Part shown: piece by piece, positions 1,110-30,179 of the stretch
How the letters are laid out: the number at the start of each line of letters is the position of its first letter
Numbering within the stretch: the first letter of the stretch is position 1
Origin: Nostoc sp. PCC 7120 = FACHB-418
GTDB taxonomy: Bacteria; Cyanobacteriota; Cyanobacteriia; Cyanobacteriales; Nostocaceae
Length of the DNA stretch: 32,000 bases
Assembly (NCBI RefSeq): GCF_000009705.1
Contig: NC_003272.1
Coordinates: 330,001 to 362,000, forward strand
Direction: 5' to 3'
The notes under the pieces: generated by a model
Seen by the model: only the letters and a program-made list of their open reading frames with translations
What the model was told of the DNA's origin: nothing
The model's database searches: none
Program-made: the position numbers and the translations under genes

Positions 1110-4100
1110 TCAGACATAAGCAAAATCGACGGTATAAGGTTCCTCTAGTGATTGTTGAGTGCTGGCTTTTATCGTATCAAGATAACGGTGGAGCGCCTGC
1201 AATTGTTGGAAATTGGGGCGGTAGGTGAGATTGCCTTGTTTTTCAAACAGTTGTGTGTTGGCGTTGGCGTAGCCCGTCGTAGACATCGCTTGATAGTCAA
1301 TATTGCTGAGAGAATGTTTGGTAAGCCATGTAGATTCTGGGGAGGCGGGTATTAAGCCGGCTGGTAGTTCTCCTTCGAGGAATGCTAATAGTCGTTGCTG
1401 ACAAATATTAGTATTGATTCCACGTCCTTCAAATAACTGGAGAACTTCATTAAAAGATAAAGTCCGATTGGGCAAAAGTCGCAGTAATTCTGTAAATAGG
1501 AAGTAGTCTGTGTATTGATGTCTAGATTCTTCCAAGACTTGGGAATGTAGGGGTAGTAAAGCTAAACCACAAGCAACACGACTACAATTAGGTGCGCCAT
1601 TTTCTCCCAGGTATGAGTCTTGAATAATCTTGGCATTGGGGAGTTTTTGCCGCAACCACAGGTTGACAACCCCTAAATTAGCTACCCCACCGGTGAGAAT
1701 TGCTTGATTAATTGCTTCTGTGGGGATACCACGGGCTACTAATAATTTGTTGAGTTCACGATTTAGGCGACGGGCAAAGGGAACAAAAACCTGACTTTCT
1801 AATTCTCGACGCTGTAAAACCCATCGTTGGTCGGCTAATTCTAGGGTAAAAGATTCTTGATGTTGCAAAATTAGCTTTAATGCTAGGGCTGCATCTAAAA
1901 CTGCTTGTCCTAACAGAGAACTTTCCAAATGTTGCTGGAGGCGAATTCGTGCTGGAACATCAGGTTCTCCCAAGCGGGGCAATTCTAATGCTTCCAATCC
2001 CAAACTTTCCCATTGCATCCGGTCTAAACCAGGCATAGAGGGTTGCCATTGCCAAGGATTACTGGTAATTTTCTGAGTATCTTCTGGGCTTTCCCAGCGA
2101 GCTTTCCGGTATTTTGGTGATGCGAGTAATTGACAGATAATATCCTGCTCTATTCCTTTGCTGGCATAGGCAAAACTGTGAAGCATGAAATTATTATGTG
2201 TCAGTTGGGATAGATTATCAGGAATATCCACCAGCGCCATTTCTGTGGCTGTTCCTCCGATATTCATGATTAAGGTGTTACCCACCAGAGAATGATCACT
2301 ATTTTTGGCTGGGGATAAACCTTGGTGAGTGCTTAATTGCACTACCTGACCATTACCACCATCGATAAAACTGAGGAGACTAGCGATCGCCTCTTCTACA
2401 AAAAATACTTGTTGGGGATGTTGAACTAACTTACTTGTGAGTAAAGCTTCTCGGACATTAAAGCGATATTGTTCTGACCAACTGGAAGGACAATTACAAA
2501 TAATCCCCGCAATATTACTGACAATACCATGAAAAGTGCGTTGATTCAGACCGACAGCCGTAGCGATTAACCCTTGAGTTGTGCTGTAGCGGTCTGCTTT
2601 GAGGGTCAAGAGTAATTTGGAGAGCGATCGCACCACCCAAATCAAAGGACCAGCAGACGATTCATTAAATTGCAGTACAGGTTCCCATCTCTGCTGTTCA
2701 TTTTTGTAGGGAATAGCTACTTGTAAATAGGGCTTCAACTGCACTGAATACAGATGGTTTTTGATGTCAGTAACCTCTTGCTCAGAAGTAGCTTGGGGTA
2801 CAGAAGCAGTCGGCAAATAAACTTCTGCTGGTAGCCGGAACGATTGCTGGAAAGAATTTGCGCCTGGTTGAGCCTCCGTCGACCAGTAAATAGGATGCAC
2901 AACACCAGTGGAGCGATTTAACAAAGCAGCAGAAATTCCTGTGGTTCCCAAATCAATGCCTAAATACCAGACGGAATCGTCACTACGAGACTTAGTATCG
3001 GTATTTTTATTAACTGCATGATTAACCGAATCTGCTATGTCCTCTTGACCAGCAGAGGGAATTTCCGTTGCTTTTTCAGTAGTTGTAGTAAAGTTTAAGA
3101 CATTGGCTGCTGGAGGCGTAACAGAAGTCTGGTTAACCTCAGGAACGGAGAAAGCAACAACATTACTTTTTTCGGTAATCGGTGGTTGGGGTGGCTTTTC
3201 TTGGTGGTCAGCTACAGTATCAGCAACCTTTAACTCAGTTACTGGTGCTGACTCGGATGACGCATAATCATCTAACTTCGCCAAATCCTGATGTAATTGT
3301 AGCCACTGCTCCTCATTCAGAGAAATATCTGGTGCGGTAACCAACTGAGTTACTTCGGAAGATAGTAAATTTTCCTGCGGCGAAGCGGGAATATAATTAT
3401 CTGCCTGATGCTCAGGCTGCTCATGAGGTGTAATAACTTCTATGTCTTGAGCAATCTGGAGAACATTTGTCTGCTCTAAAAGCACAGACACATCCGCCAA
3501 ATCTTCGGCAAACTCAATATCTACCAGAGATGTAATCGTATCAGTACTGTTTGGTTGTACGGGTTCAATTTCTGGCAAGACAGGAATATTCAACGGAACT
3601 TCCGGCTCTATGGGTAGATCAGTTGATTGTGTTAGTACAACCGGGTTTTCTGGCGTTGGAGTATCATTGAAATCAAACAGATCAGCCTCTGGTTGATCTA
3701 ATAACAACGACGTTATTAATGCCTCTGCTGGTACTTCGGTAGATTCCGTCTCTGGAGTATCACTGAAATCAAACAAATCAGTATCTGATTGGTCAAACCA
3801 TACATCTGGCATAATTGCCGCAGTATCCTCCTCAGCTAGAAAATTACTTTCCATTACAGGGGGGCTATCATCAACATTCAACTCCAGTAAATCGGGAGTA
3901 ATTAAATCTGGGCTGACTTCCAGACTTTCACCTGCAAAATTATCATTACCAAACAAACTGGCATAAATCAGATCAACTTCATCATTAGCAAATTCCCAAC
4001 TGTTGGGTAACAGTGTGGTGAGATTGTCAGGATTCTCTAAAGATAAAGGTGCATCAACACCAAGCTGCAAAAGTACTGCATCTAGCTCATCTGTATCTGT

Positions 4101-5105
4101 CTGTGTTACCAATTCTTGGTCAAATTCGACCGTAGAAGTTGATTCTTCAAGAGCTACAGGGCTACTGGAATCAGCTGGTGTTGAAACTTCGATCACAGTA
4201 TGAACTGGGATTGATAATGATGGTGGGGCTGTGGGTGAAGAATTTTCTTCTTTGGGAGCAGATGGCTGGAAATTGGACAATTGTTGTAGAGATTGTGTCC
4301 AATTATTGATGAAGCCACCCATCAACTGTTCGCTTTGTAATCCCGTACTGTGCATTCTTGCCAGCGCTTGAGACAGAGATTCATGATAGGTATTAATATT
4401 GCGTTGTAGCGCCTCAAAAACAACGTTAACAGTACCATCCAGTGATAGTAAGCGTTGATCTAACTCTTTTGTCAGTTGTGTTAGCCTGTCTCCCTGTTCC
4501 GATGATTCCCAAAAAGTTTGAGCCATTGCAGGAGGTAAGTCCAATCTGGCACTGTTACTGCTGTTATAACTAGTGGGGTTTACTCCTCCTTCTGTCATCT
4601 GTGGTGTTAAAACTGGCAGTAAGCGACTCATGAGTACTTGTAAAAAGTCTGTGATAATCTGCTCTTGGTTGGCTAACTGCTGACTTAAGGAGTAATTTTG
4701 TAACCGTTTCTGTTCTAGTTGTCTAATTTCTTGTGCCAGAATTGTTCGCTCTTGCAACAGCGCCGTAATTTCCCCTTGCAACGGCTGTATTAATTCTGAC
4801 AATTCATTTTTTAATTGTTGGAATGGAATATTATTATCTTCTTGATGTGGCTGATGGGGTTGTGGTGCAGACTGATTTTGACCTTGCTCAACAAATTTTG
4901 TCAACAGCAGCGAATTATGATTTGGTTCATTCTCTAAGGTTTCACTTCCTTGGAGACTGACCAAAAAATTACGAACTCTTTCTAAAACCTCTTTTGGCTC
5001 TTGCGCCTGACTAGACAAAAGCCTAGACAGGCGCTTGCCATTGCTGTTGAGCAAATTGTCAATATCTGCAATCAGTTTTTGAATTTCATCAGTGCGGGAA
5101 GTCAC
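1110..5105 (-). CDS. Giant Hsp70/actin-fold (ASKHA) ATPase protein with an N-terminal coiled-coil and an acidic low-complexity region
   Basis: 1331-aa ORF with a GTG start. The C-terminal ~620 aa (about nt 1110-2990) carry phosphate-1 WYLGIDLGTTGISAALL, phosphate-2-like MNIGGTATEMALVD and adenosine-like AILTGGVANLG. No Hsp70 substrate-binding domain is recognisable. The N-terminal ~250 aa are Q/L-rich heptad-like. The middle is a D/E/P/T-rich region with a duplicated DLFDF(S/N)DTP motif. Confidence 0.8.
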   Translation of the reverse strand: MTSRTDEIQKLIADIDNLLNSNGKRLSRLLSSQAQEPKEVLERVRNFLVSLQGSETLENEPNHNSLLLTKFVEQGQNQSAPQPHQPHQEDNNIPFQQLKNELSELIQPLQGEITALLQERTILAQEIRQLEQKRLQNYSLSQQLANQEQIITDFLQVLMSRLLPVLTPQMTEGGVNPTSYNSSNSARLDLPPAMAQTFWESSEQGDRLTQLTKELDQRLLSLDGTVNVVFEALQRNINTYHESLSQALARMHSTGLQSEQLMGGFINNWTQSLQQLSNFQPSAPKEENSSPTAPPSLSIPVHTVIEVSTPADSSSPVALEESTSTVEFDQELVTQTDTDELDAVLLQLGVDAPLSLENPDNLTTLLPNSWEFANDEVDLIYASLFGNDNFAGESLEVSPDLITPDLLELNVDDSPPVMESNFLAEEDTAAIMPDVWFDQSDTDLFDFSDTPETESTEVPAEALITSLLLDQPEADLFDFNDTPTPENPVVLTQSTDLPIEPEVPLNIPVLPEIEPVQPNSTDTITSLVDIEFAEDLADVSVLLEQTNVLQIAQDIEVITPHEQPEHQADNYIPASPQENLLSSEVTQLVTAPDISLNEEQWLQLHQDLAKLDDYASSESAPVTELKVADTVADHQEKPPQPPITEKSNVVAFSVPEVNQTSVTPPAANVLNFTTTTEKATEIPSAGQEDIADSVNHAVNKNTDTKSRSDDSVWYLGIDLGTTGISAALLNRSTGVVHPIYWSTEAQPGANSFQQSFRLPAEVYLPTASVPQATSEQEVTDIKNHLYSVQLKPYLQVAIPYKNEQQRWEPVLQFNESSAGPLIWVVRSLSKLLLTLKADRYSTTQGLIATAVGLNQRTFHGIVSNIAGIICNCPSSWSEQYRFNVREALLTSKLVQHPQQVFFVEEAIASLLSFIDGGNGQVVQLSTHQGLSPAKNSDHSLVGNTLIMNIGGTATEMALVDIPDNLSQLTHNNFMLHSFAYASKGIEQDIICQLLASPKYRKARWESPEDTQKITSNPWQWQPSMPGLDRMQWESLGLEALELPRLGEPDVPARIRLQQHLESSLLGQAVLDAALALKLILQHQESFTLELADQRWVLQRRELESQVFVPFARRLNRELNKLLVARGIPTEAINQAILTGGVANLGVVNLWLRQKLPNAKIIQDSYLGENGAPNCSRVACGLALLPLHSQVLEESRHQYTDYFLFTELLRLLPNRTLSFNEVLQLFEGRGINTNICQQRLLAFLEGELPAGLIPASPESTWLTKHSLSNIDYQAMSTTGYANANTQLFEKQGNLTYRPNFQQLQALHRYLDTIKASTQQSLEEPYTVDFAYV

Positions 5106-5765
5106 TTTAAATTACCTTAGCTACAAATGTTAGGTTAACTGGATTAGAAAGTTAATTTACAATCAATTAAAGTACTGAGAGTTAGTTAGTGCATTTGTTT
5201 TATTTATGACCGATATTTGTGGCATTCCCTGGGGTTGCCGCCGATACCGTCAATTGGTAACTATCAAAAGTGAAAAAGGGGCGCTTAGATCGGGTTTTAG
5301 GATTGTGATTCAAGACGCTGCTTAATGCCGTGCTACCGCTAACAGCACTCAACACTTTTTCCAGTCAGTTTCTCAGACGATGTTACAGTCTCTTGGACTT
5401 CATAGTATGAAAACATAAAAAAAACCAAACCGCCAAGCAAATTGCCTATTATATAGCGGTACTTTGCTGCTAAAACGAGGCAGATACACTTAAAATCCTC
5501 GCCAATGAAGAGTTGTGCTGTCACAAATCTTAAAATCACGCCCTGATGAGATGCTTCTTGCTCCGCTCTTTGGTGACAACAGTAATTATTTTCTGACGCA
5601 AAAGTTCCTGAATGGCAACCCCTGGTATAGATTTATTAGCAAAAATTAACTACTTTGAGTATCATTAAGGTTGTTCGACAATTTTTGGTCAATTAGGTAG
5701 GTACTAGAAAATTAACTGGGAAATGAGCATGAGGGTGCAGGATAGATTTTAAATAAGACCTTTGT

Positions 5766-8666: not shown

Positions 8667-9041
8667 TTAGTGTATTCTTTCTCTAAGTAGTTGTTCTTCT
8701 AAAGCTGCAATCCGATTGTAAGCTGCGGTTAATTGTGCTGTCAGTCGTTGTATTTGAATTTCTGGTGATATGATTTTTTCCCCACTTTGACGGCTCATGT
8801 CTAGATAAACGCCGTCTATCAATACGTCCTTATGTTCTAGCTCCTGATTAAAACCAATCTGTCCTTTGAACTGGTAGTTACCAGCCTCATTATTCTCCAG
8901 ATAATTATCTTTTGCTTCGGTTCTTGCTAAAGAACATTCCGAAAAAGCTTGAGCGACTTTCACATCAAGCTGCTCAATAACCTGGTAGAGGGCATCCAGC
9001 TTATGACTCATAGCCAGGATTTGTTGTTGTAATGACTCCAT
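8667..9041 (-). CDS. Hypothetical coiled-coil protein
   Basis: 124-aa ORF with an ATG start. Heptad-like N- and C-terminal segments (QQQILAMSHKLDALYQVIEQLDVKV; QIQRLTAQLTAAYNRIAALEEQLL). No family recognised. A 527-bp very AT-rich region lies upstream. Confidence 0.5.
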   Translation of the reverse strand: MESLQQQILAMSHKLDALYQVIEQLDVKVAQAFSECSLARTEAKDNYLENNEAGNYQFKGQIGFNQELEHKDVLIDGVYLDMSRQSGEKIISPEIQIQRLTAQLTAAYNRIAALEEQLLRERIH

Positions 9042-11994: not shown

Positions 11995-13242
11995 ATGGCG
12001 AAGTTAGGGGGTTGCGGAGTGGTGCATGATGAAAATGTAGAACAAATTAATCCCAGAGATTGGTCATGGTCTTACTGGTTCACGTTGCCACTGTATCCAT
12101 ACGGTAAGCGGCGGACGCTCCGGCATGAGGTTATTAAAGATACTATCTGGACTTTTGACCAGATGCAGGGTATCTTTTACGTCGTTGTCCCCATTCGGAT
12201 GACTGTAGTCAAACTGGATGAGGGAGGGTTACTAGTATATGCACCTGTCGCGCCTACCCCTGAATGTATCAGATTAGTCAATGAATTGGTAGCCGAATAT
12301 GGGGATGTGAAGTATATCATCCTGCCAACTATTTCGGGACTAGAACATAAGGTATTTGTCGGCCCCTTCGCCAGATATTTTCCCCAAGCACAGGTATTTG
12401 TCGCGCCGAATCAGTGGAGTTTCCCCCTTAATCTTCCCCTCAGTTGGTTGGGTTTACCAAATAAACGCACTCATGTACTCCCAGAAGATAGTAGCCAAAC
12501 TCCCTTTGCTAACGAGTTTGACTATGCAATCTTAGATACAATTGACCTTGGCCCTGGGAAGTTTGCAGAGGTGGTATTTTTGCACAAGCGATCGCATACT
12601 TTACTTGTAACAGATTCAGTTGTTTCTGTACCAGCAGATCCGCCGGCGATCGTCCAATTAGACCCCTATCCCTTACTATTCCACGCCAAAGATAAAGCCT
12701 CGGATATCGTTGTAGACAATCAAGCCAATCGCCGTAAAGGATGGGAACGCATCAGCTTATTTGCTTTGTATTTCCGTCCCAGTGCGGTAGATGTTCCCAA
12801 ATGGTCTGAGGTATGGATTGAAGCACTAAAAGCGCCAGAACGCTCATATAGAGCTTATTTTGGCTTGTTTCCTTTCAAATGGCAAGATGATTGGAGGCGA
12901 TCGTTTGAGGCTTTACGAGGGGATAGGCGTTTATTTGTCGCGCCAGTTCTACAGAAGTTGATTCTTAATCGCGCACCAAAAGAAACTATTAACTGGGCAA
13001 ATAAAGTAGCAAGTTGGGATTTTCAGTGGATTATTCCGTGTCATTTTGATGCACCAATTAAAGCAGAACCCCATCAATTTCGCCAAGCTTTCTCCTTTTT
13101 AGAAAAACAGCCTGCTGTCAGTGCAGGTTTATTTACTAGCAACAGCTATCCTTTACCAGAAAAAGATTTCCAAGTTTTGCAACAAATTGATAATGGTTTA
13201 TCTCAAAGTGGAATTGTCCCGCCACCCAAAGAGCAGGTGTAA
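11995..13242 (+). CDS. DUF4336-like protein
   Basis: The ORF is open from a TTG at 11950, with the first ATG at 11995. Conserved blocks are WSYWFTLPLYPYGKRRT, IWTFDQMQGIFYVVVPIRMTVVKL and VKYIILPTISGLEHK. The DUF4336 name is from memory. Confidence 0.65.
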   Translation: MAKLGGCGVVHDENVEQINPRDWSWSYWFTLPLYPYGKRRTLRHEVIKDTIWTFDQMQGIFYVVVPIRMTVVKLDEGGLLVYAPVAPTPECIRLVNELVAEYGDVKYIILPTISGLEHKVFVGPFARYFPQAQVFVAPNQWSFPLNLPLSWLGLPNKRTHVLPEDSSQTPFANEFDYAILDTIDLGPGKFAEVVFLHKRSHTLLVTDSVVSVPADPPAIVQLDPYPLLFHAKDKASDIVVDNQANRRKGWERISLFALYFRPSAVDVPKWSEVWIEALKAPERSYRAYFGLFPFKWQDDWRRSFEALRGDRRLFVAPVLQKLILNRAPKETINWANKVASWDFQWIIPCHFDAPIKAEPHQFRQAFSFLEKQPAVSAGLFTSNSYPLPEKDFQVLQQIDNGLSQSGIVPPPKEQV

Positions 13243-13396
13243 TACCAATTCAAAATTCAAAATTCAAAATAGCCTACGGCAAGGCTACGCCAACAAAATT
13301 AAGAATCAAGACAGGACAAGCTTTTGGGGCTGTATATCTGTCGCATTCTTTTTTTAAATTGGTGTAACTCATACATCAACTACAATATTTGACTTA

Positions 13397-13531
13397 GGGA
13401 ACGCCAAAAAGTAAATTATCCGAAATTGATGCTTTAGTAGGGTGCGTCAGTATGAATAATTTCTGAGTATAGTTAGGTTCTATCGCACTGACGCATTCTA
13501 CATTGTGGACATTTTTTTATTTGGAAGTCTC
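13397..13531 (+). mobile_element. MITE-like dispersed element, intact copy (about 135 bp)
   Basis: Imperfect terminal inverted repeats: GGGAACGCCAAAAAGTAAA at the left end and the reverse complement GAGACTTCCAAATAAAAAA at the right end. An internal hairpin pairs GTGCGTCAGT with ACTGACGCA. It is flanked by TTA on the left and TAA on the right. A second copy at 18249-18291 plus 19762-19854 aligns along its full length. Confidence 0.7.
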
Positions 13532-13688
13532 TAATTCATAGCGAATTAACTAGACTAACACCCTGCGTTCCTCCGCGTTTACTTAGTCTTCCTCTGCGTT
13601 TAAAAAATTTACACATTGACATAAAGCAAATCTAAAAGCAATAAATATTAATTATTTAAGTCAATGACTACTGAATAGTCTTATTTTA

Positions 13689-13702
13689 TACTTTATAAAG
13701 TA
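13689..13702. promoter_or_regulatory. Perfect 14-bp AT-rich palindrome overlapping -10-like hexamers upstream of the AIM24-like gene
   Basis: TACTTTATAAAGTA ends 33 nt upstream of the ATG at 13736. TATAAA and TATAGT hexamers overlap or follow it, and a TTGACA lies at 13616-13621. Chance occurrence in AT-rich DNA is plausible. Confidence 0.2.
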
Positions 13703-13735
13703 TAGTTAAATATCCGACTCCATAAGAATAAATTT

Positions 13736-14464
13736 ATGCAATACGAAGTCAAAATTATAGAACCGACAGATTTGTGGTACTTACAAAATAACATTAATAA
13801 AGACACAAACAAATATTATCACCCTACTAAAAATATCCCTTTTGTTCAGCAAGTTGAAATAAAAATCGAAAACTCTGGGGTTGTCATTCAAAAAGGTGCT
13901 TTGCATAGATGTTTAGGTAAATTAACTCATGGTGTTTATAAAACCGATAATCGATTAAAAGATGTTTGGGTAGCTTTAATGACGGAGATAGATTACAACG
14001 CCCCTGTTTATAAAGGTAGTGGTAACGTCTATCTTGAACCTAGAGGCAAAGGTCAATTTTTACATTACACAGATATTGAAATATCAGAGCAAGAACAATG
14101 GGAATTTGATGATGGGATCTTCCAATTTTGTTCTGATAATGTAATTTTAGGCACTAAAAAACTGAAATTTCGCCAGATGTCTGGTTCCAGTGATGGTAGA
14201 TGGAGAATTGCCATTAAAGCCTTAGCCGGGCAAACAGCTAAAGTTGTCACAGGTACAAATACGCCTGCTAGGATTATTGAAATTCATAGAGGTGAAACCG
14301 TCATTGCTGACTATGATTTGGTGAAAGGATTTACTAATGGAATTCAAGAAGATTACAGAAAATTAGGACACTTTGGTAAAGGTGGCGGAGAAGGTTTTGT
14401 TTGGATGTATGAAGGTCAAGGTAAGTTATTAATATCGGAAACCGACGGTATGGGATTAGGTTAA
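13736..14464 (+). CDS. AIM24/DUF124-like beta-sandwich protein; first gene of the candidate conflict module
   Basis: 242-aa ORF with an ATG start, noticeably AT-rich (about one-third GC by eye). The block order follows the AIM24 pattern as I recall it: VVIQKGALHRCLGKL; YKGSGNVYLEP; WEFDDGIFQFCSDNVILG; RGETVIADYDLVKGF; GGGEGFVWMYEGQGKLLIS. Not verified by search. Confidence 0.55.
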   Translation: MQYEVKIIEPTDLWYLQNNINKDTNKYYHPTKNIPFVQQVEIKIENSGVVIQKGALHRCLGKLTHGVYKTDNRLKDVWVALMTEIDYNAPVYKGSGNVYLEPRGKGQFLHYTDIEISEQEQWEFDDGIFQFCSDNVILGTKKLKFRQMSGSSDGRWRIAIKALAGQTAKVVTGTNTPARIIEIHRGETVIADYDLVKGFTNGIQEDYRKLGHFGKGGGEGFVWMYEGQGKLLISETDGMGLG

Positions 14465-14598
14465 ATGATTTGATTATTTGATAGTCTCTTAGTTCTAATT
14501 GCTTTTTTTACTATTTATTGAAATCTCTTCACGCCAGTATTGAAAATACTGGTATCGTCTGCTATGATTTCCAAAAATATAGTAAAAAATATTACACA

Positions 14599-14943
14599 AT
14601 GGATAATCAAGATTCCCTCATCGATGAGCCAGTGATCATTGTAGAATTTGCTCCTAGTGCTGGGATGAGGTCAGTTAGCTTGACTCCAGCAGATATCGCC
14701 AAAGAATCGGCGAAAGCATTGGATAAAGCCATGCTGACTATCCGGCAAATGGCACAAAAGACAATGGCAACAATCGATACATTATCTAACAAGCCCTCAG
14801 AAGTGGAATTAGAATTTGGCATCAAATTAAATACTGAAGCAGGTGCAATTATTGCCAAAACTTCGGGAGAAGCCAGCCTCAAGGTAAAGTTACTCTGGGA
14901 GCGCAAAGATTCCAATAATGAGCCAGATTCAAAATCTGCGTAA
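14599..14943 (+). CDS. Trypco2-like (trypsin co-occurring domain 2; CU044_2847-type) small protein
   Basis: The ORF is open from a TTG at 14518, with the first ATG at 14599 (MDNQDSL...). The C-terminal signature PSEVELEFGIKLNTEAGAIIAKTSGEASLKVKLLWERK matches the EFG-K-(S/T)-AEAGA-IAK...-V-L-W core of Trypco2 proteins. The stop at 14941-14943 lies 26 nt inside the next gene. Confidence 0.75.
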   Translation: MDNQDSLIDEPVIIVEFAPSAGMRSVSLTPADIAKESAKALDKAMLTIRQMAQKTMATIDTLSNKPSEVELEFGIKLNTEAGAIIAKTSGEASLKVKLLWERKDSNNEPDSKSA

Positions 14944-17893
14944 CTTTACCGTGCAGATTCGTGATGTCAACAATGTGATTGTTGGCACCGGTTTTGTAGT
15001 TTCCCCTACAGGAAAAATCGTCACCTGTTGTCATGTGGTGCGGGATGCAGGGGGACAAGTTGCTGAGGGAGTAGAAATTAATGTCTACTTCCCGAAAGCG
15101 ATAAAGCCAGAACAGAAAGCACATACAGCTAAAGTTACAGCTTGTTTTTTAGACCATGATGATGATGTGGTTGTGTTGCAACTGGACACGACTACACTCC
15201 CAGATGGGATAGAACCTGCAATTATGGGGATGGCTGAAGGTTCAGCAGGTCACAAATTTCGGAGTTTTGGCTACCGCCGACTACAAAATTACCAAGGACT
15301 ACCAGCTCATGGTGAAATAGTAGACTTTGCCGAATCACCAGAGACGCTGATTTTGCATAGCGACCCTGTAATGTTGAATAGCCAGCATATCGACAGTGGT
15401 ATGAGTGGTTCCGCCGTTCTGGATATCGAACGCAACTTAGTAGTGGGTGTAATTGCGGAAACTTGGGACTCTGGGGAAAGTGAAAAAGACCGGGACACAA
15501 GTTTTGCAGTTGATTGTCGAGTCCTCACTTTTGACCCCATGTGTTTACCATTAGCAGATGCACCACCTACACCCCAGCCTACAATTAACTCAAACCCTAC
15601 AGGAGAGCAACCAGTGTCTCAACCAGGGATAATCTCGAACCTGAATAATGCACCAGCACCTTTAGAAGAATGGGTGGGTAGAGTAGATTTTCTCAAAACA
15701 CTAAATCAGGATTGGGTTGACTCTAATTGCTCAATTGTGGGACTTATTGGTTTTGGAGGGGAAGGTAAAAGTTCCCTCACTCGTCGCTGGCTGGAAGATT
15801 TGCTACACGACTCATCTTTACCTCAACCTACTGGCGTGTTTTGGTGGGGTTTTTATGAAAAAGCTAGTGCAGATGAATTTTTTGAGGCGGCGCTAAGGTT
15901 TCTTAATAACAAAATTGACCCCCGTATATTGACCTCAACTACTATTAAAGTCCAAGTGATATTGGCAATGCTCAACAGTGGTCGCTATCTCTTTATCTTG
16001 GATGGATTGGAAGTGCTGCAACAGCAAGAAGGAGATAATTACGGCGAGTTAACTAGCGTAGACTTGCGGGAGTTTTTACGAGAGTTTGCGGCTGGGAGAC
16101 ATGAATCATTTTGTTTAATTAACAGCCGTGCGCCACTGGTAGACTTAATTGATTTCACCACCTACACCCATCGAGATGTAGACCGGCTAACAGTCTATGA
16201 GGGAAGAGAATTACTAAAAAAATTTGGAGTCAAAGGTACACATGATCAGTTAAACCGAGTGGTGCAGCAGTGGGATGGTTATGCCTTGGTTTTGAGTCTG
16301 TTAGGGTCTTATCTAGTAGATAATTATGGAGGCAAAATTGAACATATCGTCGGAATTCCAGCACCAACGGCTGATGAACCTCGATATGAGCGAGTGCGGC
16401 GAGTGTTGCGACGCTATGACGAAAATCTAACACTAGCAGAAAAGGAATTAATGAAGTGGTTTAGTGCCTTTCGTCTACCAGTACCAGAATCAGCATTACA
16501 GCAGATATTTCCACAATTTGGCGCTAGTTTGTCAACTTTCACCCCATCAGAACATATATCGTCATTAAATAGCGACTCCTTGCTGACAATGGTGCAGCGA
16601 TTGGTAAACTATCGGATTTTGCGACACAATCAGCAAGAATATTACTACACTATTCATCCCCTCATCCGCGCTCACTATTTGGCAATACTGCACAATGATC
16701 GTGAGGAAGCAGTGGTAGTTCATCAACAAATTGCAGATTACTATCTTGAAACGGCTGGGGAAACACCAGAAAACCCAACCTTGGATGATTTAGCACCACT
16801 GATTGAAGCTGTGCATCACCTCTGCCAAGGACAAAATTATGATGAAGCGATTAGCTTATTTTGGAAGCGCATTTACCAAGATGATCACTCTATAATTACC
16901 CACAAACTTGGAGCATACGAAACTAACTTAACCTTAATACAAGAGTTTTTTCCCAAAGGCGATACATCCCAAGAACCACAGGTGAGTAACTATAACCATA
17001 AACGTTTCATCCTCAACGCAGTTGGTTTATCTTTGATGTATGTGGGACGTATCGAGAAAGCTCCAACTTTTTATGAGCGTGCTAATGCGATTGCTCTTAA
17101 CAGACAAGACTGGGAAAACGCCAGTGCTGGCTATCAAAATCTAGCAGAGCAACACATATATCTCGGCAACCTTTCAGCTAGTACTGATGCTGCCAAAGAA
17201 GCATTAAATCTTGCTCATCGCTCTCCAAATAAGAGACATGAGTGTAATTCATTGGCTCTTAAAGGGTGGGCTGTAAACTTGCAGGGTGATAATAAGACAG
17301 CAGATAAAGCCTTTCTACAAGCAGAGGCATTGGAACAAAAAATTGACTCAAGTGAGCTTTATCTATACGGCTTAAGGGGTATCTGGCACGCTGATTACCT
17401 ACTGCGAGTAGGAAGTAGAAACGATGCACGACAGATGACAGAGGCAAACCTAGAGAGTTGTCAACGCAATAACTGGGTTAATAGTATCAGCAGATGTCAC
17501 CGTGTGTTGGGCGACCTAGATGCAGATGCTGGACAAAACGAAAATGCCCGCGAACACTATAACGAAGCCCTCAAGATTGCTCGTAGCATTTCTCATCGAC
17601 CCGTCCTGATTGAAGCGCTACTAGCGCGGGGACGCTGGGCAGCGCGACGGGGTGAAGTTGCGGCGGCGCGTGGTGATTTAGAAGAAGCGCTGAATTATGC
17701 CTGTACTGGTGGTTATCGCATTTATGAAGCAGATATCCGGGTTGCTTTGGGGTGGATGCACCTGGCAAACCACAATTACTCAGCAGCGACGGCGGAGGCA
17801 AAAAAGGCGCGTTTAATGAGTGATGAGATGGGCTATTATTGGGGTCGCGTTGATGCTGATGAAGTTTTGCAAGCTTTAAAACAGAATTTCTAA
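14918..17893 (+). CDS. Trypsin-like serine peptidase / NB-ARC-type STAND NTPase / TPR fusion protein (Avs-like)
   Basis: 991-aa ORF.
- Peptidase (aa ~20-205): His39 in TCCHVV (15032-15034), Asp81-83 in DDDVVVLQL, Ser163 in DSGMSGSAV (15404-15406).
- P-rich linker at aa 210-250.
- NTPase: Walker A GFGGEGKSS (K284 at 15767-15769), Walker B LFILDGLE, sensor-like FCLINSR, GxP-like DGYALVLSLLGSYL.
- TPR-like repeats at aa ~640-985 (e.g. NARENYNEALKIA-type helices). Confidence 0.85.
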   Translation: MSQIQNLRNFTVQIRDVNNVIVGTGFVVSPTGKIVTCCHVVRDAGGQVAEGVEINVYFPKAIKPEQKAHTAKVTACFLDHDDDVVVLQLDTTTLPDGIEPAIMGMAEGSAGHKFRSFGYRRLQNYQGLPAHGEIVDFAESPETLILHSDPVMLNSQHIDSGMSGSAVLDIERNLVVGVIAETWDSGESEKDRDTSFAVDCRVLTFDPMCLPLADAPPTPQPTINSNPTGEQPVSQPGIISNLNNAPAPLEEWVGRVDFLKTLNQDWVDSNCSIVGLIGFGGEGKSSLTRRWLEDLLHDSSLPQPTGVFWWGFYEKASADEFFEAALRFLNNKIDPRILTSTTIKVQVILAMLNSGRYLFILDGLEVLQQQEGDNYGELTSVDLREFLREFAAGRHESFCLINSRAPLVDLIDFTTYTHRDVDRLTVYEGRELLKKFGVKGTHDQLNRVVQQWDGYALVLSLLGSYLVDNYGGKIEHIVGIPAPTADEPRYERVRRVLRRYDENLTLAEKELMKWFSAFRLPVPESALQQIFPQFGASLSTFTPSEHISSLNSDSLLTMVQRLVNYRILRHNQQEYYYTIHPLIRAHYLAILHNDREEAVVVHQQIADYYLETAGETPENPTLDDLAPLIEAVHHLCQGQNYDEAISLFWKRIYQDDHSIITHKLGAYETNLTLIQEFFPKGDTSQEPQVSNYNHKRFILNAVGLSLMYVGRIEKAPTFYERANAIALNRQDWENASAGYQNLAEQHIYLGNLSASTDAAKEALNLAHRSPNKRHECNSLALKGWAVNLQGDNKTADKAFLQAEALEQKIDSSELYLYGLRGIWHADYLLRVGSRNDARQMTEANLESCQRNNWVNSISRCHRVLGDLDADAGQNENAREHYNEALKIARSISHRPVLIEALLARGRWAARRGEVAAARGDLEEALNYACTGGYRIYEADIRVALGWMHLANHNYSAATAEAKKARLMSDEMGYYWGRVDADEVLQALKQNF

Positions 17894-18008: not shown

Positions 18009-18248
18009 GAGTATAAAAGACTCATCCGTGAGTATTTATGACTTGCTCATGAGTATCAAAGACTTGTCCGCGAGTATTTATGACTCGCTCATGAGTATCA
18101 AAGACTCGTCCGGGAGTATTTATGACTTGTTCATGAGTATCAAAGACTTGTCTGGGAGTATTTATGACTTGTTCATGAGTATCAAAGACTTGTCTGGGAG
18201 TATTTATGACTTGTTCATGAGTATCAAAGACTCGTTTGCGAATATTTA
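18009..18248. repeat. Tandem array of 21-bp units in two alternating subtypes (42-bp super-unit), 11 full units plus a split 12th
   Basis: Units start at 18009, 18030, 18051 ... 18219. Subtype A is GAGTATCAAAGACTYGTCYGG and subtype B is GAGTATTTATGACTYGYTCAT. The B units 6, 8 and 10 are identical to one another, as are the A units 7 and 9. The edge units are diverged. The array resumes after the MITE/IS insertion at 19855-19891. Confidence 0.9.
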
Positions 18249-18291
18249 GGGAACACCAAAAAATAAATTATTCCAAATTGACGGTTAGTAG
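18249..18291 (+). mobile_element. MITE-like element, second copy, left fragment (split by the IS110-family insertion)
   Basis: GGGAACACCAAAAAATAAATTATTCCAAATTGACGGTTAGTAG aligns with 13397-13440 of the intact copy. The alignment stops abruptly at 18291/18292. Confidence 0.75.
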
Positions 18292-18577: not shown

Positions 18578-19540
18578 TTAAGCGTTGGGAATGGGTTGTA
18601 AGTTGTCAGTAACACGCCAAGGTAAATTATCCCGAACCATTGCATTTAAAATGACTAACATTTTATGAACGCAAGCAGTGAGAGCTAATTTTTTCGATTT
18701 ACCACGTTCGACAAGACGCTCATAAAAGGCCTTGATAACCGGATTATGACGCATAGCAACAACAGCACCCATATAAAGAGTGGCACGAACATGAGCGCGA
18801 CCGCCATTAATCATGCGCTTACCTTTGTGTTGACCACTATCATGATTGATAGGTGCAACACCAACTAAGCGAGAAATTTGTTTGGCAGTGAGTTGACCGA
18901 GTTCTGGCAAATCAGAAACCAGAGTTGTCGAAATAACTTGGCCAATACCAGGAGTAGTTTTGAGTAAATTAACTTTTTCAATCCATTGTTGATTGTTTTG
19001 AGTTAATTGCTCAATTTCTTGATTGAGTTGTTTGAGACGTTCGTCAAGATATTCAATGTGTGCTTCAATATCTGCCAATGCTTTACCACGGGCGCGTGAG
19101 CGTCGATTTTTTTCAGCAGTTTGCATCTCAACTAATTGTCTTCGACGACTAATTAATTCTCCTAATTGACGAGATGCTTGTGACTCAATGTTTAACACTT
19201 GAGGTTTCATTGCTTCCCCAAAGTGTGCCAATATTTGTGCATCGATAGCATCTGTTTTGGCGAGTTTACCAGTGGCTTTGGCAAAATTTCGTCCTTGACG
19301 TGGATTGATTAATGCTACTGGTAGCATTGCTGCCTGTAGTTGAATGACCAGTTCTGTTTCTAATCCTCCGGTTGCTTCTAGTACGATGAGGTTCAAATCA
19401 TAAAATTTTAATTGTTCAACTAAATTAAATATTTCTAGTTCTGTATTAGCAAACTTCAATGCTTTACCGATGGGACGGATATAAACATCGAGGGTCGCTT
19501 TGCTCACGTCAATGCCTACCCACACAGAGATGTTTTCCAT
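18578..19540 (-). CDS. IS110 family transposase (DEDD recombinase)
   Basis: 320-aa ORF. The N-terminal RuvC-like DEDD region has VWVGIDVSKATLDV, VLEATGGLE and AKTDAIDAQILA. The C-terminal Tnp domain has INHDSGQHKGKRMINGGRAHVRATLYMGAVVA. Confidence 0.9.
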   Translation of the reverse strand: MENISVWVGIDVSKATLDVYIRPIGKALKFANTELEIFNLVEQLKFYDLNLIVLEATGGLETELVIQLQAAMLPVALINPRQGRNFAKATGKLAKTDAIDAQILAHFGEAMKPQVLNIESQASRQLGELISRRRQLVEMQTAEKNRRSRARGKALADIEAHIEYLDERLKQLNQEIEQLTQNNQQWIEKVNLLKTTPGIGQVISTTLVSDLPELGQLTAKQISRLVGVAPINHDSGQHKGKRMINGGRAHVRATLYMGAVVAMRHNPVIKAFYERLVERGKSKKLALTACVHKMLVILNAMVRDNLPWRVTDNLQPIPNA

Positions 19541-19761
19541 TTTTGAATCTCAACTATTTTGTCAAGAAGTTTTTAATTCATCCCCTTGATTTCACTCATC
19601 CTTGCCCGATGCGGACTGTATACTTTAAATGTCAGTAGTTTAAAGCTTTGACCCCGGCGACTGTTCGAGTTCTGTCAAAGAGATTGTTGTGGTGACCCAT
19701 GCTACAAAGCGGTCTTTAATGACCTAGGGTGCGACGGTCTACCACTTCTTTTAATATACAA

Positions 19762-19854
19762 GGGTGCGTCAGTATGAATAATTATTTTGGTACAGCTAAG
19801 TTTTCTCGCACTGACGCACCCTACATTTGGGATATTTTTTTATCTGGAATTCCC
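19762..19854 (+). mobile_element. MITE-like element, second copy, right fragment
   Basis: GGGTGCGTCAGTATGAATAATT...CTCGCACTGACGCACCCTACATTTGGGATATTTTTTTATCTGGAATTCCC aligns with 13440-13531. It has a perfect 12-bp internal hairpin (GGGTGCGTCAGT/ACTGACGCACCC). The right TIR, reverse-complemented, is GGGAATTCCAGATAAAAAAAT. Confidence 0.75.
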
Positions 19855-19953
19855 TTATGACTCGCTCACGGAGTTTAAACACTCATTTACCAGTTCCTAG
19901 AAGCGGGAAGAGAAACAAGTGTAACTCCGTTGTCGCGATCGCCTTTAACGCCT

Positions 19954-20298
19954 TTAATCGGTAGACTCAATTAACTTGAAACCCCAAGGCTTGAGAGCTG
20001 CGATCGCTATTTCTCGATCTACGCCTTCATAAAGTTCCCATTCATGGGGGTGTTCTTTGGGGTGTCCTTCGCCGACGTTACCTGCAACTTTGATGACTGG
20101 AAAATTCGCCACGCGATCGCGCTCTAATCCTTTGGGTAGCGCTAGCTGGACTTTACGACCGATAAATTTTGACATACCAGAATTAGCCACAGATTCACGG
20201 ATTAAACAAATATCACCAGCAGTACCCCAAGTAGTTTGGTAAATGTAGAGAAATGATATGTAGGTTTCTGGTTTAATTGACCTTTTGAGAACTTTCAT
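19954..20298 (-). CDS. Hypothetical protein (114 aa)
   Basis: ATG-initiated ORF convergent with the STAND gene. Ordinary composition and HIP1 sites inside. No family recognised from the sequence. Confidence 0.5.
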   Translation of the reverse strand: MKVLKRSIKPETYISFLYIYQTTWGTAGDICLIRESVANSGMSKFIGRKVQLALPKGLERDRVANFPVIKVAGNVGEGHPKEHPHEWELYEGVDREIAIAALKPWGFKLIESTD

Positions 20299-28789: not shown

Positions 28790-28950
28790 TTGACACTCTC
28801 CGCCCTATAAGTGCGGAGATTCTTCATTCATAGACCCAACTTGCTCACACAAGATTTCTCCAGCATGAGTAGAGGACGAATCTCCTGAAGCGTTCGGATC
28901 ATAGATCCAGGTTCCTACGTGACCCGTAGTACCCAAGGCTAGTTTCAGAA
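28790..28950 (-). ncRNA. Candidate omega (re)RNA scaffold overlapping the tnpB 3' end
   Basis: By analogy with characterised TnpB loci, the guide RNA scaffold derives from the 3' end of tnpB plus the RE. The terminal hairpin and GTGTCAAC tail are visible. The extent is guessed. Confidence 0.3.
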
Positions 28951-30015
28951 TGTTAATCGCTGCGTTCCAATCTCTATCCATCACAAATCCGCATTCACAA
29001 ACATGAGTTCTTGTGGATAGAGATTTTTTGACTACTGCGCCACAATTAGAGCATTGGCTTGTTGTGTACGCAGGATTAACAGCTACAGTTATCCGGCCAA
29101 ATTTCACACCGAAATACTCCAACCATTTTCTGAATTGATACCAACCAGCATCATTAATAGATTTAGCGAGACAGTGATTCTTAACTAAGTTTTTAACCCT
29201 CAAATCTTCATAGGCGACCAAATCGTGAGATTGGATTACGCAACGCGCTACTCTCTTAGCGTGTTCTTCACGTTGCCTACTTATTTTGAGGTGTACTCGC
29301 CCTAATTTATTAAGGGCTTTTTTGCGATTGGTAGAGCCTTTCTGATGCCTTGAAACGCGCCTTTGTCTAAACTTTAGACGCTTCTCTCCTGTGCGATAAA
29401 ACTTAGGGTTAGGTTCTGTATGTCCGTTGCTATCGGTGTAGAACTCTTTTAAACCAACATCTAAACCAATGGTTTTACCAGTCGGTTGTGTTTCTACTTT
29501 GTTATCTGCGCTAATCAGGAATTGAACATAATACCCATCGGCACGACGGACTAACCTAACTCGTTTTATCTGCTCCAATTGGTAGAAGTTTAAATTCCAC
29601 GTTCCCTTTAGATTGAGTTTGCCAATACCTTTTTTGTCAGTAAAAGTGATTTGCTTTCTAGTTTCAGAAAGTGACCATCCAGAGGTTTTATATTCAACTG
29701 AACGGTTGTTTTTTTAAACTGTGGATAACCTTTCTTACCTGGAACAGACTTTTTACAGTTGTCGTAAAAACGAGCAATAGAACTATAAGCCCGTTCGATA
29801 GAAGCTTGGCAAGCACTAGAGTTCAAAGCCTTGACAAAAGAAAACTCATGTCTGAGAACCTTACTAAGACGATATAAGTCTTTCTGCCCTACACCTCGGT
29901 TATCCATCCAAAAACGAATAGCTTTGTTGCGAACGAATTGACAGGTTCTAATCGCCTCATCAATGGCTACATATTGAGTTGTTTTGCCTTTAGCTTTAAA
30001 CTCTAAAACAATCAT
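28805..30015 (-). pseudogene. tnpB: TnpB-type RNA-guided endonuclease gene interrupted by a -1 frameshift
   Basis: The ORFs 29608..30039 and 28805..29578 read as one TnpB. The N-part is MIVLEFKAKGKTTQYVAIDEAIRTCQFVRNKAIRFW...GYPQFKK. The C-part has RuvC D (IGLDVGL), E (VAYEDL) and D (DRDWNAAINI) plus a CxxC...CxC zinc finger. After the A7 run (complement of 29709-29715) the -1 frame continues as NNRSVEYKTSGWSLSETRKQITFTDKKGIGKLNLKG..., which is the expected TnpB sequence. Confidence 0.85.
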
Positions 30016-30179
30016 TTTACGTGGACAAATCCTACGCAAATATTATACCATAATCAAAGCCGTCCTTCAAGGACGGGGCTTTAGACCCAGTTTCTTGGTA
30101 AAAATTTATCCGCGTACCCTGCGGGAAGACTTCTCTACGAGACGCTACCGCGAACGTCAATATCTGTGTCCATCTGCGT

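Follow-up and report, generated by a model that had tools for sequence, protein, structure and literature searches.

Introduction

The Trypco1 and Trypco2 families were defined by their co-occurrence with trypsin-like peptidases in conflict systems centred on nucleoside triphosphatases (NTPases), in which they are mutually exclusive neighbours (Kaur, Burroughs, Iyer and Aravind, eLife 2020; PMC7159879). Here we examine a gene pair that resembles these systems in a 32-kb window, namely the 32,000 nucleotides (nt) at positions 330,001 to 362,000 of contig NC_003272.1 from the cyanobacterium Nostoc sp. PCC 7120, where a Trypco1 gene lies directly upstream of alr0304, which encodes a fusion of a trypsin-like protease, a STAND NTPase and an array of TPR repeats. 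An earlier reading of this window, made from the nucleotide letters alone, had joined the two genes to a preceding AIM24-like gene as a protease-armed STAND immune module, possibly of a new three-gene kind. Our analysis retains the module for the two downstream genes, on the basis of their catalytic residues, Walker motifs and recurrent pairing, and removes the AIM24 gene from it.

A representative of the class has recently been worked out in mechanistic detail. Evans et al., who rename Trypco1 and Trypco2 as Pepco, report that a phage portal protein triggers the toxicity of a Streptomyces subrutilus module composed of SsPepco and trypsin-Avs4, and that both Pepco and the catalytic serine are required (bioRxiv 10.1101/2025.11.14.688446, Nov 2025). 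According to the same report, SsPepco pre-assembles as 9-10-mer beta-barrels, and the protease trims a charged, proline-rich C-terminal tail of ~2 kDa after Ile97 (I97/R98). Truncated Pepco is toxic, its toxicity depends on an amphipathic helix, and Pepco-protease-Avs modules are described as protease-activated pore formers (10.1101/2025.11.14.688446). The statement in the sequence-only reading that Trypco domains lack biochemical characterisation is therefore out of date.

STAND proteins of bacterial defence provide the second point of comparison. In a 2026 survey that covers Avs1-21, most of these proteins are described as recognising conserved phage proteins through TPR-like sensors of complementary shape (10.64898/2026.01.04.697583). 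Against this background, we consider it likely that the pair in PCC 7120 is a two-gene module of the protease-effector/STAND ("Avs-like") immune or abortive-infection class, situated beside an unrelated AIM24 gene. The pair matches both the association described in 2020 and the Pepco-protease-Avs modules of 2025, and so belongs to a kind of system already described rather than to an undescribed three-gene system.

Architecture of the Trypco1-alr0304 pair

The locus consists of three plus-strand open reading frames (ORFs) encoding proteins of 242, 114 and 991 amino acids, the last two of which share 26 nt (Table 1); the ORF calls agree with the earlier reading in position, strand and overlap. 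The length of the second protein is counted from the ATG at 14599. A longer TTG-start ORF opens at 14518, but the lengths and N-termini of homologues back the ATG as the start codon. As in the SsPepco/trypsin-Avs4 module, a protein of ~115 residues without enzymatic motifs is encoded directly upstream of a protein with trypsin, STAND and alpha-helical-repeat parts, here in a cyanobacterium rather than in Streptomyces.

The trypsin-like N-terminus and C-terminal TPR repeats that had been proposed for the 991-residue protein are recovered as matches to Trypsin_2 and to TPR_12 and TPR_MalT. The NTPase between them had been called NB-ARC-type, which stands at the level of a STAND NTPase with a fold like those of the archaeal STAND-TPR protein 6mfv and Apaf-1, but not at the curated Pfam threshold. 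NB-ARC (PF00931) scores 16.9 bits against a cut-off of 23.5 (E 4e-3) and NACHT (PF05729) 18.3 bits against 26.7 (E 2e-3), both sub-threshold, and some members of the alr0304 family carry precomputed matches to one or the other. The residues H39, D82/D83 and S163 (in GMSG), the Walker A motif GFGGEGKS with K284, and D362 of Walker B are all invariant in an alignment of 26 family sequences. Two of these, S163 and K284, had already been singled out in the sequence-only reading.

An AlphaFold model of alr0304, with a mean predicted local distance difference test score (pLDDT) of 80.6, begins with a trypsin fold, continues with a P-loop NTPase accompanied by helical and winged-helix modules, and ends in an extended TPR solenoid whose all-helical repeats exceed a pLDDT of 90. 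For the protease domain, Foldseek returns MucD, DegP and HtrA at root-mean-square deviations of 3.3-5 Å. The NTPase-helical-TPR part matches 6mfv (E 4e-13) and Apaf-1 (E about 2e-7), and LGN/Pins and the TPR region of AfsR are structural or sequence matches of the TPR array. Although the fold of this part resembles those of Apaf-1 and 6mfv, alr0304 differs from Apaf-1 in having a fused protease effector with a separate substrate instead of a CARD adaptor, in addition to its sub-threshold NB-ARC and NACHT scores.

The resulting layout, with an N-terminal effector, a central STAND NTPase with intact Walker A and B motifs and a C-terminal TPR-like sensor, is that of Avs proteins. The likeness to Avs/AVAST proteins (10.64898/2026.01.04.697583) extends to a diversifying sensor. 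The locus also resembles the systems of Kaur et al. (PMC7159879) in that Trypco1 adjoins a trypsin-like peptidase and an NTPase with repeats in a multicellular bacterium. However, the peptidase is here fused straight onto the STAND-TPR protein, and no MoxR, vWA or VMAP domain was found in the ORFs of at least 100 residues scanned across the window, unlike in the MoxR-vWA-VMAP ternary systems in which that work mainly places the pairing.

A Trypco1 protein with a conserved tryptophan

The small protein had been assigned to Trypco2, and this assignment has to be changed. It matches the Trypco1 profile (PF19493) with 81.5 bits (cut-off 24.6, E 7e-23) over 94 of the 98 model positions, and also the NCBIfam CU044_2847 family (70.9 bits, cut-off 23). 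Since confidence in the monomer model is low (pLDDT 57.6), the model was used for secondary structure only and not for a fold search. At that level of confidence, the model predicts an amphipathic helix at residues ~30-60 and an amphipathic beta-hairpin formed by residues 68-77 and 92-101. The hydrophobic moment reaches a z score of 3.2 in the helix and of 3.0 and 2.4 in two strands with alternating polar and hydrophobic residues. The protein ends in KVKLLW100-ERKDSNNEPDSKSA, where the 14 residues that follow W100 form a polar tail that is 50 % charged and contains one proline. This C-terminal stretch corresponds to window positions 14896-14943.

The wider family comprises 3,132 clusters at E<=1e-3, from which 149 diverse representatives were surveyed. 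The last strand ends in a tryptophan, W100 in the PCC 7120 protein, in 141 of 146 diverse members. Behind it comes a short tail that varies between members (median 8 residues, range 0-55), and there is no conserved isoleucine at the boundary between strand and tail. In these predictions, the protein resembles Pepco in its amphipathic helix and strands and in its charged C-terminus. On the basis of these predictions, the helix, the alternating strands and the charged, disordered tail would fit a membrane-active beta-barrel former.

SsPepco, compared through its published description, appears to differ in several respects. It is cut between Ile97 and Arg98 and loses a 20-residue tail, whereas Trypco1 carries a near-invariant tryptophan and a tail of 14 residues in PCC 7120 and of 8 residues in the median family member. 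The helix of SsPepco lies at ~10-17, whereas the low-confidence model places that of the PCC 7120 protein centrally, at residues 30-60. With a tryptophan and a short variable tail in place of an isoleucine and a 20-residue tail, the cleavage or licensing step may not be the same as in SsPepco.

Pairing and co-divergence across the family

Relatives of alr0304 are numerous, with at least 863 significant matches among the candidates scored, and full-length relatives at ~50 % identity occur in Cyanobacteria, Chloroflexi, Zixibacteria and an Asgard metagenome-assembled genome (MAG). Among 80 metagenomic family loci surveyed for gene pairing, 64 could be evaluated. In 49 of the 64, the gene that immediately precedes the STAND gene encodes Trypco1, on the same strand and with a gap of ~3-60 nt or an overlap, which bears out the proposal that a small Trypco-type gene is the partner of the STAND gene. 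The closest module outside Nostoc, in a Leptolyngbyaceae MAG (L147), has a STAND protein with 81 % and a Trypco1 with 91 % identity and the identical 26-nt overlap, and is flanked by a metallophosphatase and an NYN gene. A more distant module in Brasilonema (L148; 62 % identity) also has a paired Trypco1 and also lies upstream of metH, with a TPR/AAA_35 gene in the position that the AIM24 gene has in PCC 7120.

The two partners diverge together. Divergence of Trypco1 correlates with that of the trypsin domain (Mantel r 0.65, reached in 0 of 2000 permutations) and continues to do so when the TPR sensor is controlled for (partial r 0.51), whereas its correlation with the TPR sensor vanishes once the trypsin domain is controlled for (partial r 0.07). 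Co-divergence with the protease and not with the sensor is the pattern expected of an enzyme-substrate cassette that is joined to exchangeable sensors.

No Trypco2 was found in the family loci that lack Trypco1. Six of these loci instead carry in the Trypco1 slot a protein of 109-152 (~140) residues with multiple transmembrane segments and the N-terminus MSAPFRI(R/H), here called "c3" (Table 1), which matches nothing in Pfam or NCBIfam. It was rejected as a divergent Trypco, given its multiple transmembrane segments and an hhalign probability to Trypco1 of 0.2 %, and it may be an alternative membrane effector licensed by the protease. Apart from these six and one further locus (L108), the slot of Trypco1-less loci holds nothing recognisable.

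Two family loci have unusual gene structures. In L108 (436-4371), an extra N-terminal HD-CE domain precedes the trypsin-STAND-TPR core. In L120, an ORF that matches Trypco1 (2243-2650) overlaps, in another frame, a STAND-family ORF of 1276 residues (1783-5613), the first 306 residues of which have no Pfam match. Uma2 genes appear near family members in two loci and in L147.

Mosaic evolution of alr0304

Pairwise comparison of the window with the corresponding locus of Nostoc parmelioides (L001) reveals that alr0304 is a mosaic. Synonymous divergence (dS) is 0.1-0.2 in Trypco1 and in residues 1-300 and 901-991 of alr0304, and 0.34 and 0.33 in the flanking AIM24 and DUF4336 genes. In residues 301-900 of alr0304, dS is saturated (about 0.7 to >2) and protein identity falls to 40-70 %. 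In the block of residues 751-800, nonsynonymous differences per site exceed synonymous ones (pN 0.34, pS 0.28). At 81 % identity, the allele in PCC 7120 resembles that of the Leptolyngbyaceae MAG more than those of sister strains (~70 %), and NIES-3756 and TCL26-01, the nearest sister genomes, have no copy of the gene at the corresponding position. Residues 301-900 are thus an NTPase/sensor cassette that has been exchanged relative to N. parmelioides. Allele exchange, patchy spread across phyla and swapping of effectors are typical of receptors that sense pathogens.

Proposed mechanism and alternative explanations

By analogy with the published modules, from which the type of trigger, the oligomerisation, the cleavage and the pore formation are taken, the pair might function as follows. 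The TPR array of alr0304 would bind a foreign protein, presumably derived from a cyanophage. Binding would lift autoinhibition, and the STAND NTPase would oligomerise in a nucleotide-dependent manner for which K284 and D362 would be needed. Oligomerisation would gather and activate the N-terminal trypsin-like domains (H39/D83/S163), the activated protease would cleave the co-translated Trypco1, and cleaved Trypco1 would form a membrane-permeabilising oligomer, with the consequence that the infected cell is killed or arrested. A literature search by the locus tags alr0301-alr0305 found no experiment on alr0302-alr0304.

A number of observations weigh against placing the pair in the Avs-like immune class. 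Neither Avs3 nor Avs4 is among the top 50 Foldseek matches, and none of the PADLOC v2.0.0 models, including those for AVAST/Avs and bNACHT, matches the NTPase/TPR part even at E<=10. The protease domain alone is matched (RT-Protease_XI, LmuA, PDC-M35A), and the Trypco1 protein has no match among the PADLOC v2 models. A search of PDB sequences yielded no match to the NTPase domain, and the full family profile matched TPR and HtrA entries only. The NTPase/sensor part thus differs from trypsin-Avs4 in lacking a PADLOC AVAST match, a PDB sequence match and an Avs fold match among the top 50, and alr0304 does not belong by sequence to any Avs family described in PADLOC v2.0.0. Nor does the family appear to share the defence-island context of Avs/AVAST. 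Recurrent neighbours in the 80 family loci are mostly housekeeping genes (LepA, rhomboid, epimerase, phosphorylase), and tblastn of alr0304 against plasmids gave no match at E<=1e-20. The low confidence of the Trypco1 monomer model and the tryptophan with a short tail, where SsPepco by its published description has an isoleucine and a 20-residue tail, count on the same side. So do the location of the pair ahead of metH in Nostoc as well as in Brasilonema, which makes long retention possible, and the possibility, discussed below, that AIM24 and Trypco1 are transcribed together.

Some of these observations would also suit an endogenous switch for regulated proteolysis or programmed cell death, in which the trigger is a self or stress signal, such as kin conflict or developmental or stress-induced lysis, and not a virus. 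This explanation, which we regard as unlikely, draws on the link made by Kaur et al. 2020 between Trypco-trypsin systems and multicellular prokaryotes and conflict generally (PMC7159879), and on the report that certain protease-effector modules carry fused DnaK-like domains, suggesting stress sensing (10.1101/2025.11.14.688446). It also fits the housekeeping neighbours, the position upstream of metH that is kept in two Nostocales genera and the finding that no model in the PADLOC v2 defence database matches the pair as a system. However, exchange and divergence are located in the NTPase/sensor cassette, with the protease and Trypco1 conserved; the family is patchy and crosses phyla, with effectors swapped; and the homologous architecture that has been studied, Pepco with trypsin-Avs4, answers a phage portal protein.

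It is highly improbable that alr0304 serves as an HtrA-like housekeeping protease for quality control, or as a TPR scaffold, beside an unrelated or structural, non-toxic small ORF, as the source annotation "TPR repeat protein" and the HtrA, DegP and MucD matches of the protease domain might suggest, given that the protein lacks a PDZ domain, a signal peptide and a periplasmic layout, joins its protease to a STAND NTPase whose Walker motifs are invariant, is encoded by a gene missing from the locus in the closest sister genomes, and has in Trypco1 a partner with specific pairing and co-divergence.

Within the Avs-like immune interpretation, we tentatively suggest that the alr0304 family represents an Avs-like clade, so far uncharacterised, that responds to a new trigger (perhaps a protein of cyanophages), that Trp-type Trypco1 is licensed differently from Ile-type SsPepco, and that "c3" is an alternative, previously undescribed effector licensed by the protease. 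The three-gene idea has failed, and the locus is not worth pursuing in that form. Its remaining value is that of a clean pair of Trypco1 and trypsin-STAND-TPR genes whose host, Nostoc/Anabaena PCC 7120, is a model cyanobacterium amenable to genetics, and it extends to the Trp-type Trypco1, the swapped sensor cassette and the "c3" partner of some relatives. The pair comes from a class that was described computationally in 2020 and whose mechanism was newly worked out in 2025 with a Streptomyces representative. The pair could inform on the licensing of Trp-type Trypco1, on the cyanophage protein detected and on the exchange of sensor cassettes between close strains.

The AIM24 gene is a conserved neighbour

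The 242-residue protein does belong to the AIM24/DUF124 family, as had been recognised: it matches PF01987 above the gathering score (41.3 bits, cut-off 25.7), with residues 38-233 aligned to positions 9-202 of the 205 in the model. The protein has no match in a PDB sequence search or among PADLOC v2 models, and the family is without a known function or link to defence. A scan with one genome per species recovered 62 loci with AIM24 orthologues at 66-98 % identity, which form a tight, cyanobacteria-specific group. Identity follows taxonomy, from 88-98 % in Nostoc/Trichormus through ~80 % in Tolypothrix/Scytonema and ~77 % in Fischerella to ~73 % in Microcoleus and Calothrix. Comparison with N. 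parmelioides gives a ratio of nonsynonymous to synonymous divergence (dN/dS) of 0.03, indicating strong purifying selection. The gene thus has the character of a conserved gene that filamentous cyanobacteria have passed on vertically.

Membership of this gene in the module had been proposed, together with a survey for enrichment of AIM24 homologues beside Trypco or trypsin-STAND genes. Such co-occurrence does not recur across lineages. Of 64 other genomes examined overall, 60 of which had at least 1.5 kb of sequence downstream of AIM24 and so could be evaluated, only N. parmelioides has the module next to AIM24, and its AIM24 protein is 98 % identical to that of PCC 7120. At the other 63 loci, Trypco1, the NTPase and the protease were not found when these components and the TPR were sought within 10 kb on either side by tblastn and then by profile hidden Markov models (HMMs). 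The AIM24 orthologues there have no conserved partner and adjoin lineage-specific housekeeping genes (glycogen synthase, SfsA, QueD-like, MoxR/DUF58, ABC transporter). Conversely, no AIM24 orthologue is present in 83 loci (611 kb) of alr0304 relatives, and none was found within the 8-kb flanks fetched for the Leptolyngbyaceae MAG and Brasilonema modules.

The junction between AIM24 and the pair leads to the same conclusion. Nostoc NIES-3756 and TCL26-01, the two complete genomes nearest to PCC 7120, retain the left-flank block SBP-AKR-DUF4336-AIM24, and their DNA homology with the window breaks off precisely at the AIM24 stop codon (14464/5). The module is also missing from Trichormus sp. M33, where homology runs through the intergenic region to ~14590, a few nucleotides before the Trypco1 ATG, which indicates that the left junction of the module abuts the Trypco1 start codon. 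Base composition differs as well. AIM24 has a GC content of 0.354 overall and 0.263 at third codon positions (GC3), compared with 0.426 and 0.445 overall and a GC3 of 0.37-0.40 for the pair. The AT-rich setting noted in the sequence-only reading therefore applies to the AIM24 gene and the intergenic DNA (GC ~0.33 around 13000-14500) but not to the Trypco1/STAND pair.

A three-gene system, in which the AIM24-like protein would be a regulator, a second effector or a substrate of the module at least in the clade of PCC 7120 and T. variabilis, is thus largely refuted by comparative genomics, and we hold it to be very unlikely. In its favour, AIM24 and Trypco1 are on the same strand, separated by 134 nt, and no terminator-like site was seen between them, which makes co-transcription possible; with the left junction at the Trypco1 start codon, read-through from AIM24 is conceivable. 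The adjacency is kept in N. parmelioides and, as inferred from accession numbering, in T. variabilis ATCC 29413 and Anabaena CCY 9910. However, the AIM24 proteins of all these genomes fall into one cluster at 90 % identity, pointing to a single evolutionary event. AIM24 is accordingly a conserved neighbour that stands beside the module in one narrow Nostoc clade, and not a third component. Co-option of the AIM24-fold protein in the clade of PCC 7120 and T. variabilis as a lineage-specific accessory, for instance one co-transcribed with the module and cleaved by its protease, seems very doubtful, and the suggestion of an Avs-like clade with a new trigger is the more plausible of the two; if true, co-option would be the first defence role for the AIM24 fold.

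Local DNA and flanking genes

Upstream of AIM24 lie genes for a DUF4336 protein and an aldo-keto reductase (AKR), and metH (TIGR02082, 1584 bits) follows downstream of the pair; these profile matches confirm the DUF4336-like and metH flanks that had been named. The description of the surroundings as laden with insertion sequences (IS), repeats and miniature inverted-repeat transposable elements (MITEs) was also accurate, in view of the IS110 gene, the 42-nt tandem repeat and the two copies of a hairpin element (Table 1). The tandem repeat gives rise to a spurious repetitive ORF at 18028-18249.

The ~100-nt element is MITE-like in look, with a 15-bp terminal hairpin (TAGGGTGCGTCAGT...ACTGACGCA). 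Its left copy is missing in N. parmelioides, where the trio is present, and in NIES-3756, and is therefore a PCC 7120-specific insertion that does not mark the boundary of a mobile unit. A composite mobile unit, with the hairpin copies bracketing the three genes and IS110, was ruled out on the same grounds.

The promoter-like site between AIM24 and Trypco1 reads TTGAAA-17-TATGAT with a TG extension, ~30 nt 5' of the Trypco1 ATG, and is a consensus match only. It is situated in DNA homologous to the 3' flank of AIM24 in a module-less genome. An Rfam scan of the whole window gave no match, and no tRNA genes were found in it.

Table 1. Positions of the features discussed, numbered from the first nucleotide of the window except where a locus handle is given.
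Feature	Position	Strand	Remarks
~100-nt hairpin element, two direct copies	13439-13535 and 19761-19858		80-100 % identical
AIM24-family gene (alr0302-position, BAB77826.1)	13736-14464	+	conserved flanking gene, outside module
AIM24-Trypco1 intergenic region	14465-14598		134-nt gap; promoter-like site at 14540-14568
Trypco1 ("Pepco"-class; alr0303 position)	14599-14943	+	114 aa; predicted latent effector and substrate of adjacent protease
alr0304 (BAB77828.1)	14918-17893	+	RefSeq 991 aa; trypsin-like protease / STAND NTPase / TPR sensor
Trypsin_2 domain (HtrA-like, no PDZ), residues 23-178	14984-15451	+	Pfam 54.7 bits, E 2.5e-14
Catalytic codons	H39 15032-15034; D82/D83 15161-15166; S163 15404-15406		
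STAND P-loop NTPase with helical and winged-helix modules, residues ~245-640	15650-16837	+	
Walker A GFGGEGKS; Walker B LFILDGLE (D362)	K284 codon 15767-15769		
Exchanged allele cassette, alr0304 residues ~301-900	15818-17617	+	most of NTPase and N-terminal part of TPR sensor; L001 12080-14000 in N. parmelioides
C-terminal TPR array, residues ~641-991	16838-17893	+	presumed ligand sensor; TPR_12 and TPR_MalT matches
42-nt tandem repeat	18009-18235		5.4 copies, 93 % matches, 21-nt sub-period; directly 3' of alr0304 stop codon
IS110 transposase gene	18578-19540	-	between alr0304 and metH
"c3" ORFs in family loci	L072:5469-5927, L073:152-577, L124:3914-4339, L135:244-663, L139:5480-5881, L141:291-620; also L122:1494-1919		

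Several other ORFs of the window, all on the minus strand, were noted. A TnpB-like gene for 257 residues at 28805-29578 (OrfB_IS605 and Cas12f1-like TNB) has a separate 143-residue ORF just upstream (29608-30039), and the two may represent a split or degraded TnpB of the IS605 family. A 114-residue ORF between IS110 and metH (19954-20298) has no match in Pfam (E<=1e-3) or NCBIfam (E<=0.01), and a 1331-residue ORF at 1110-5105 has none in Pfam at E<=1e-4. A 124-residue ORF at 8667-9041 is likewise without a Pfam match at E<=1e-3, and an ORF of the same length occupies the syntenic position in NIES-3756.

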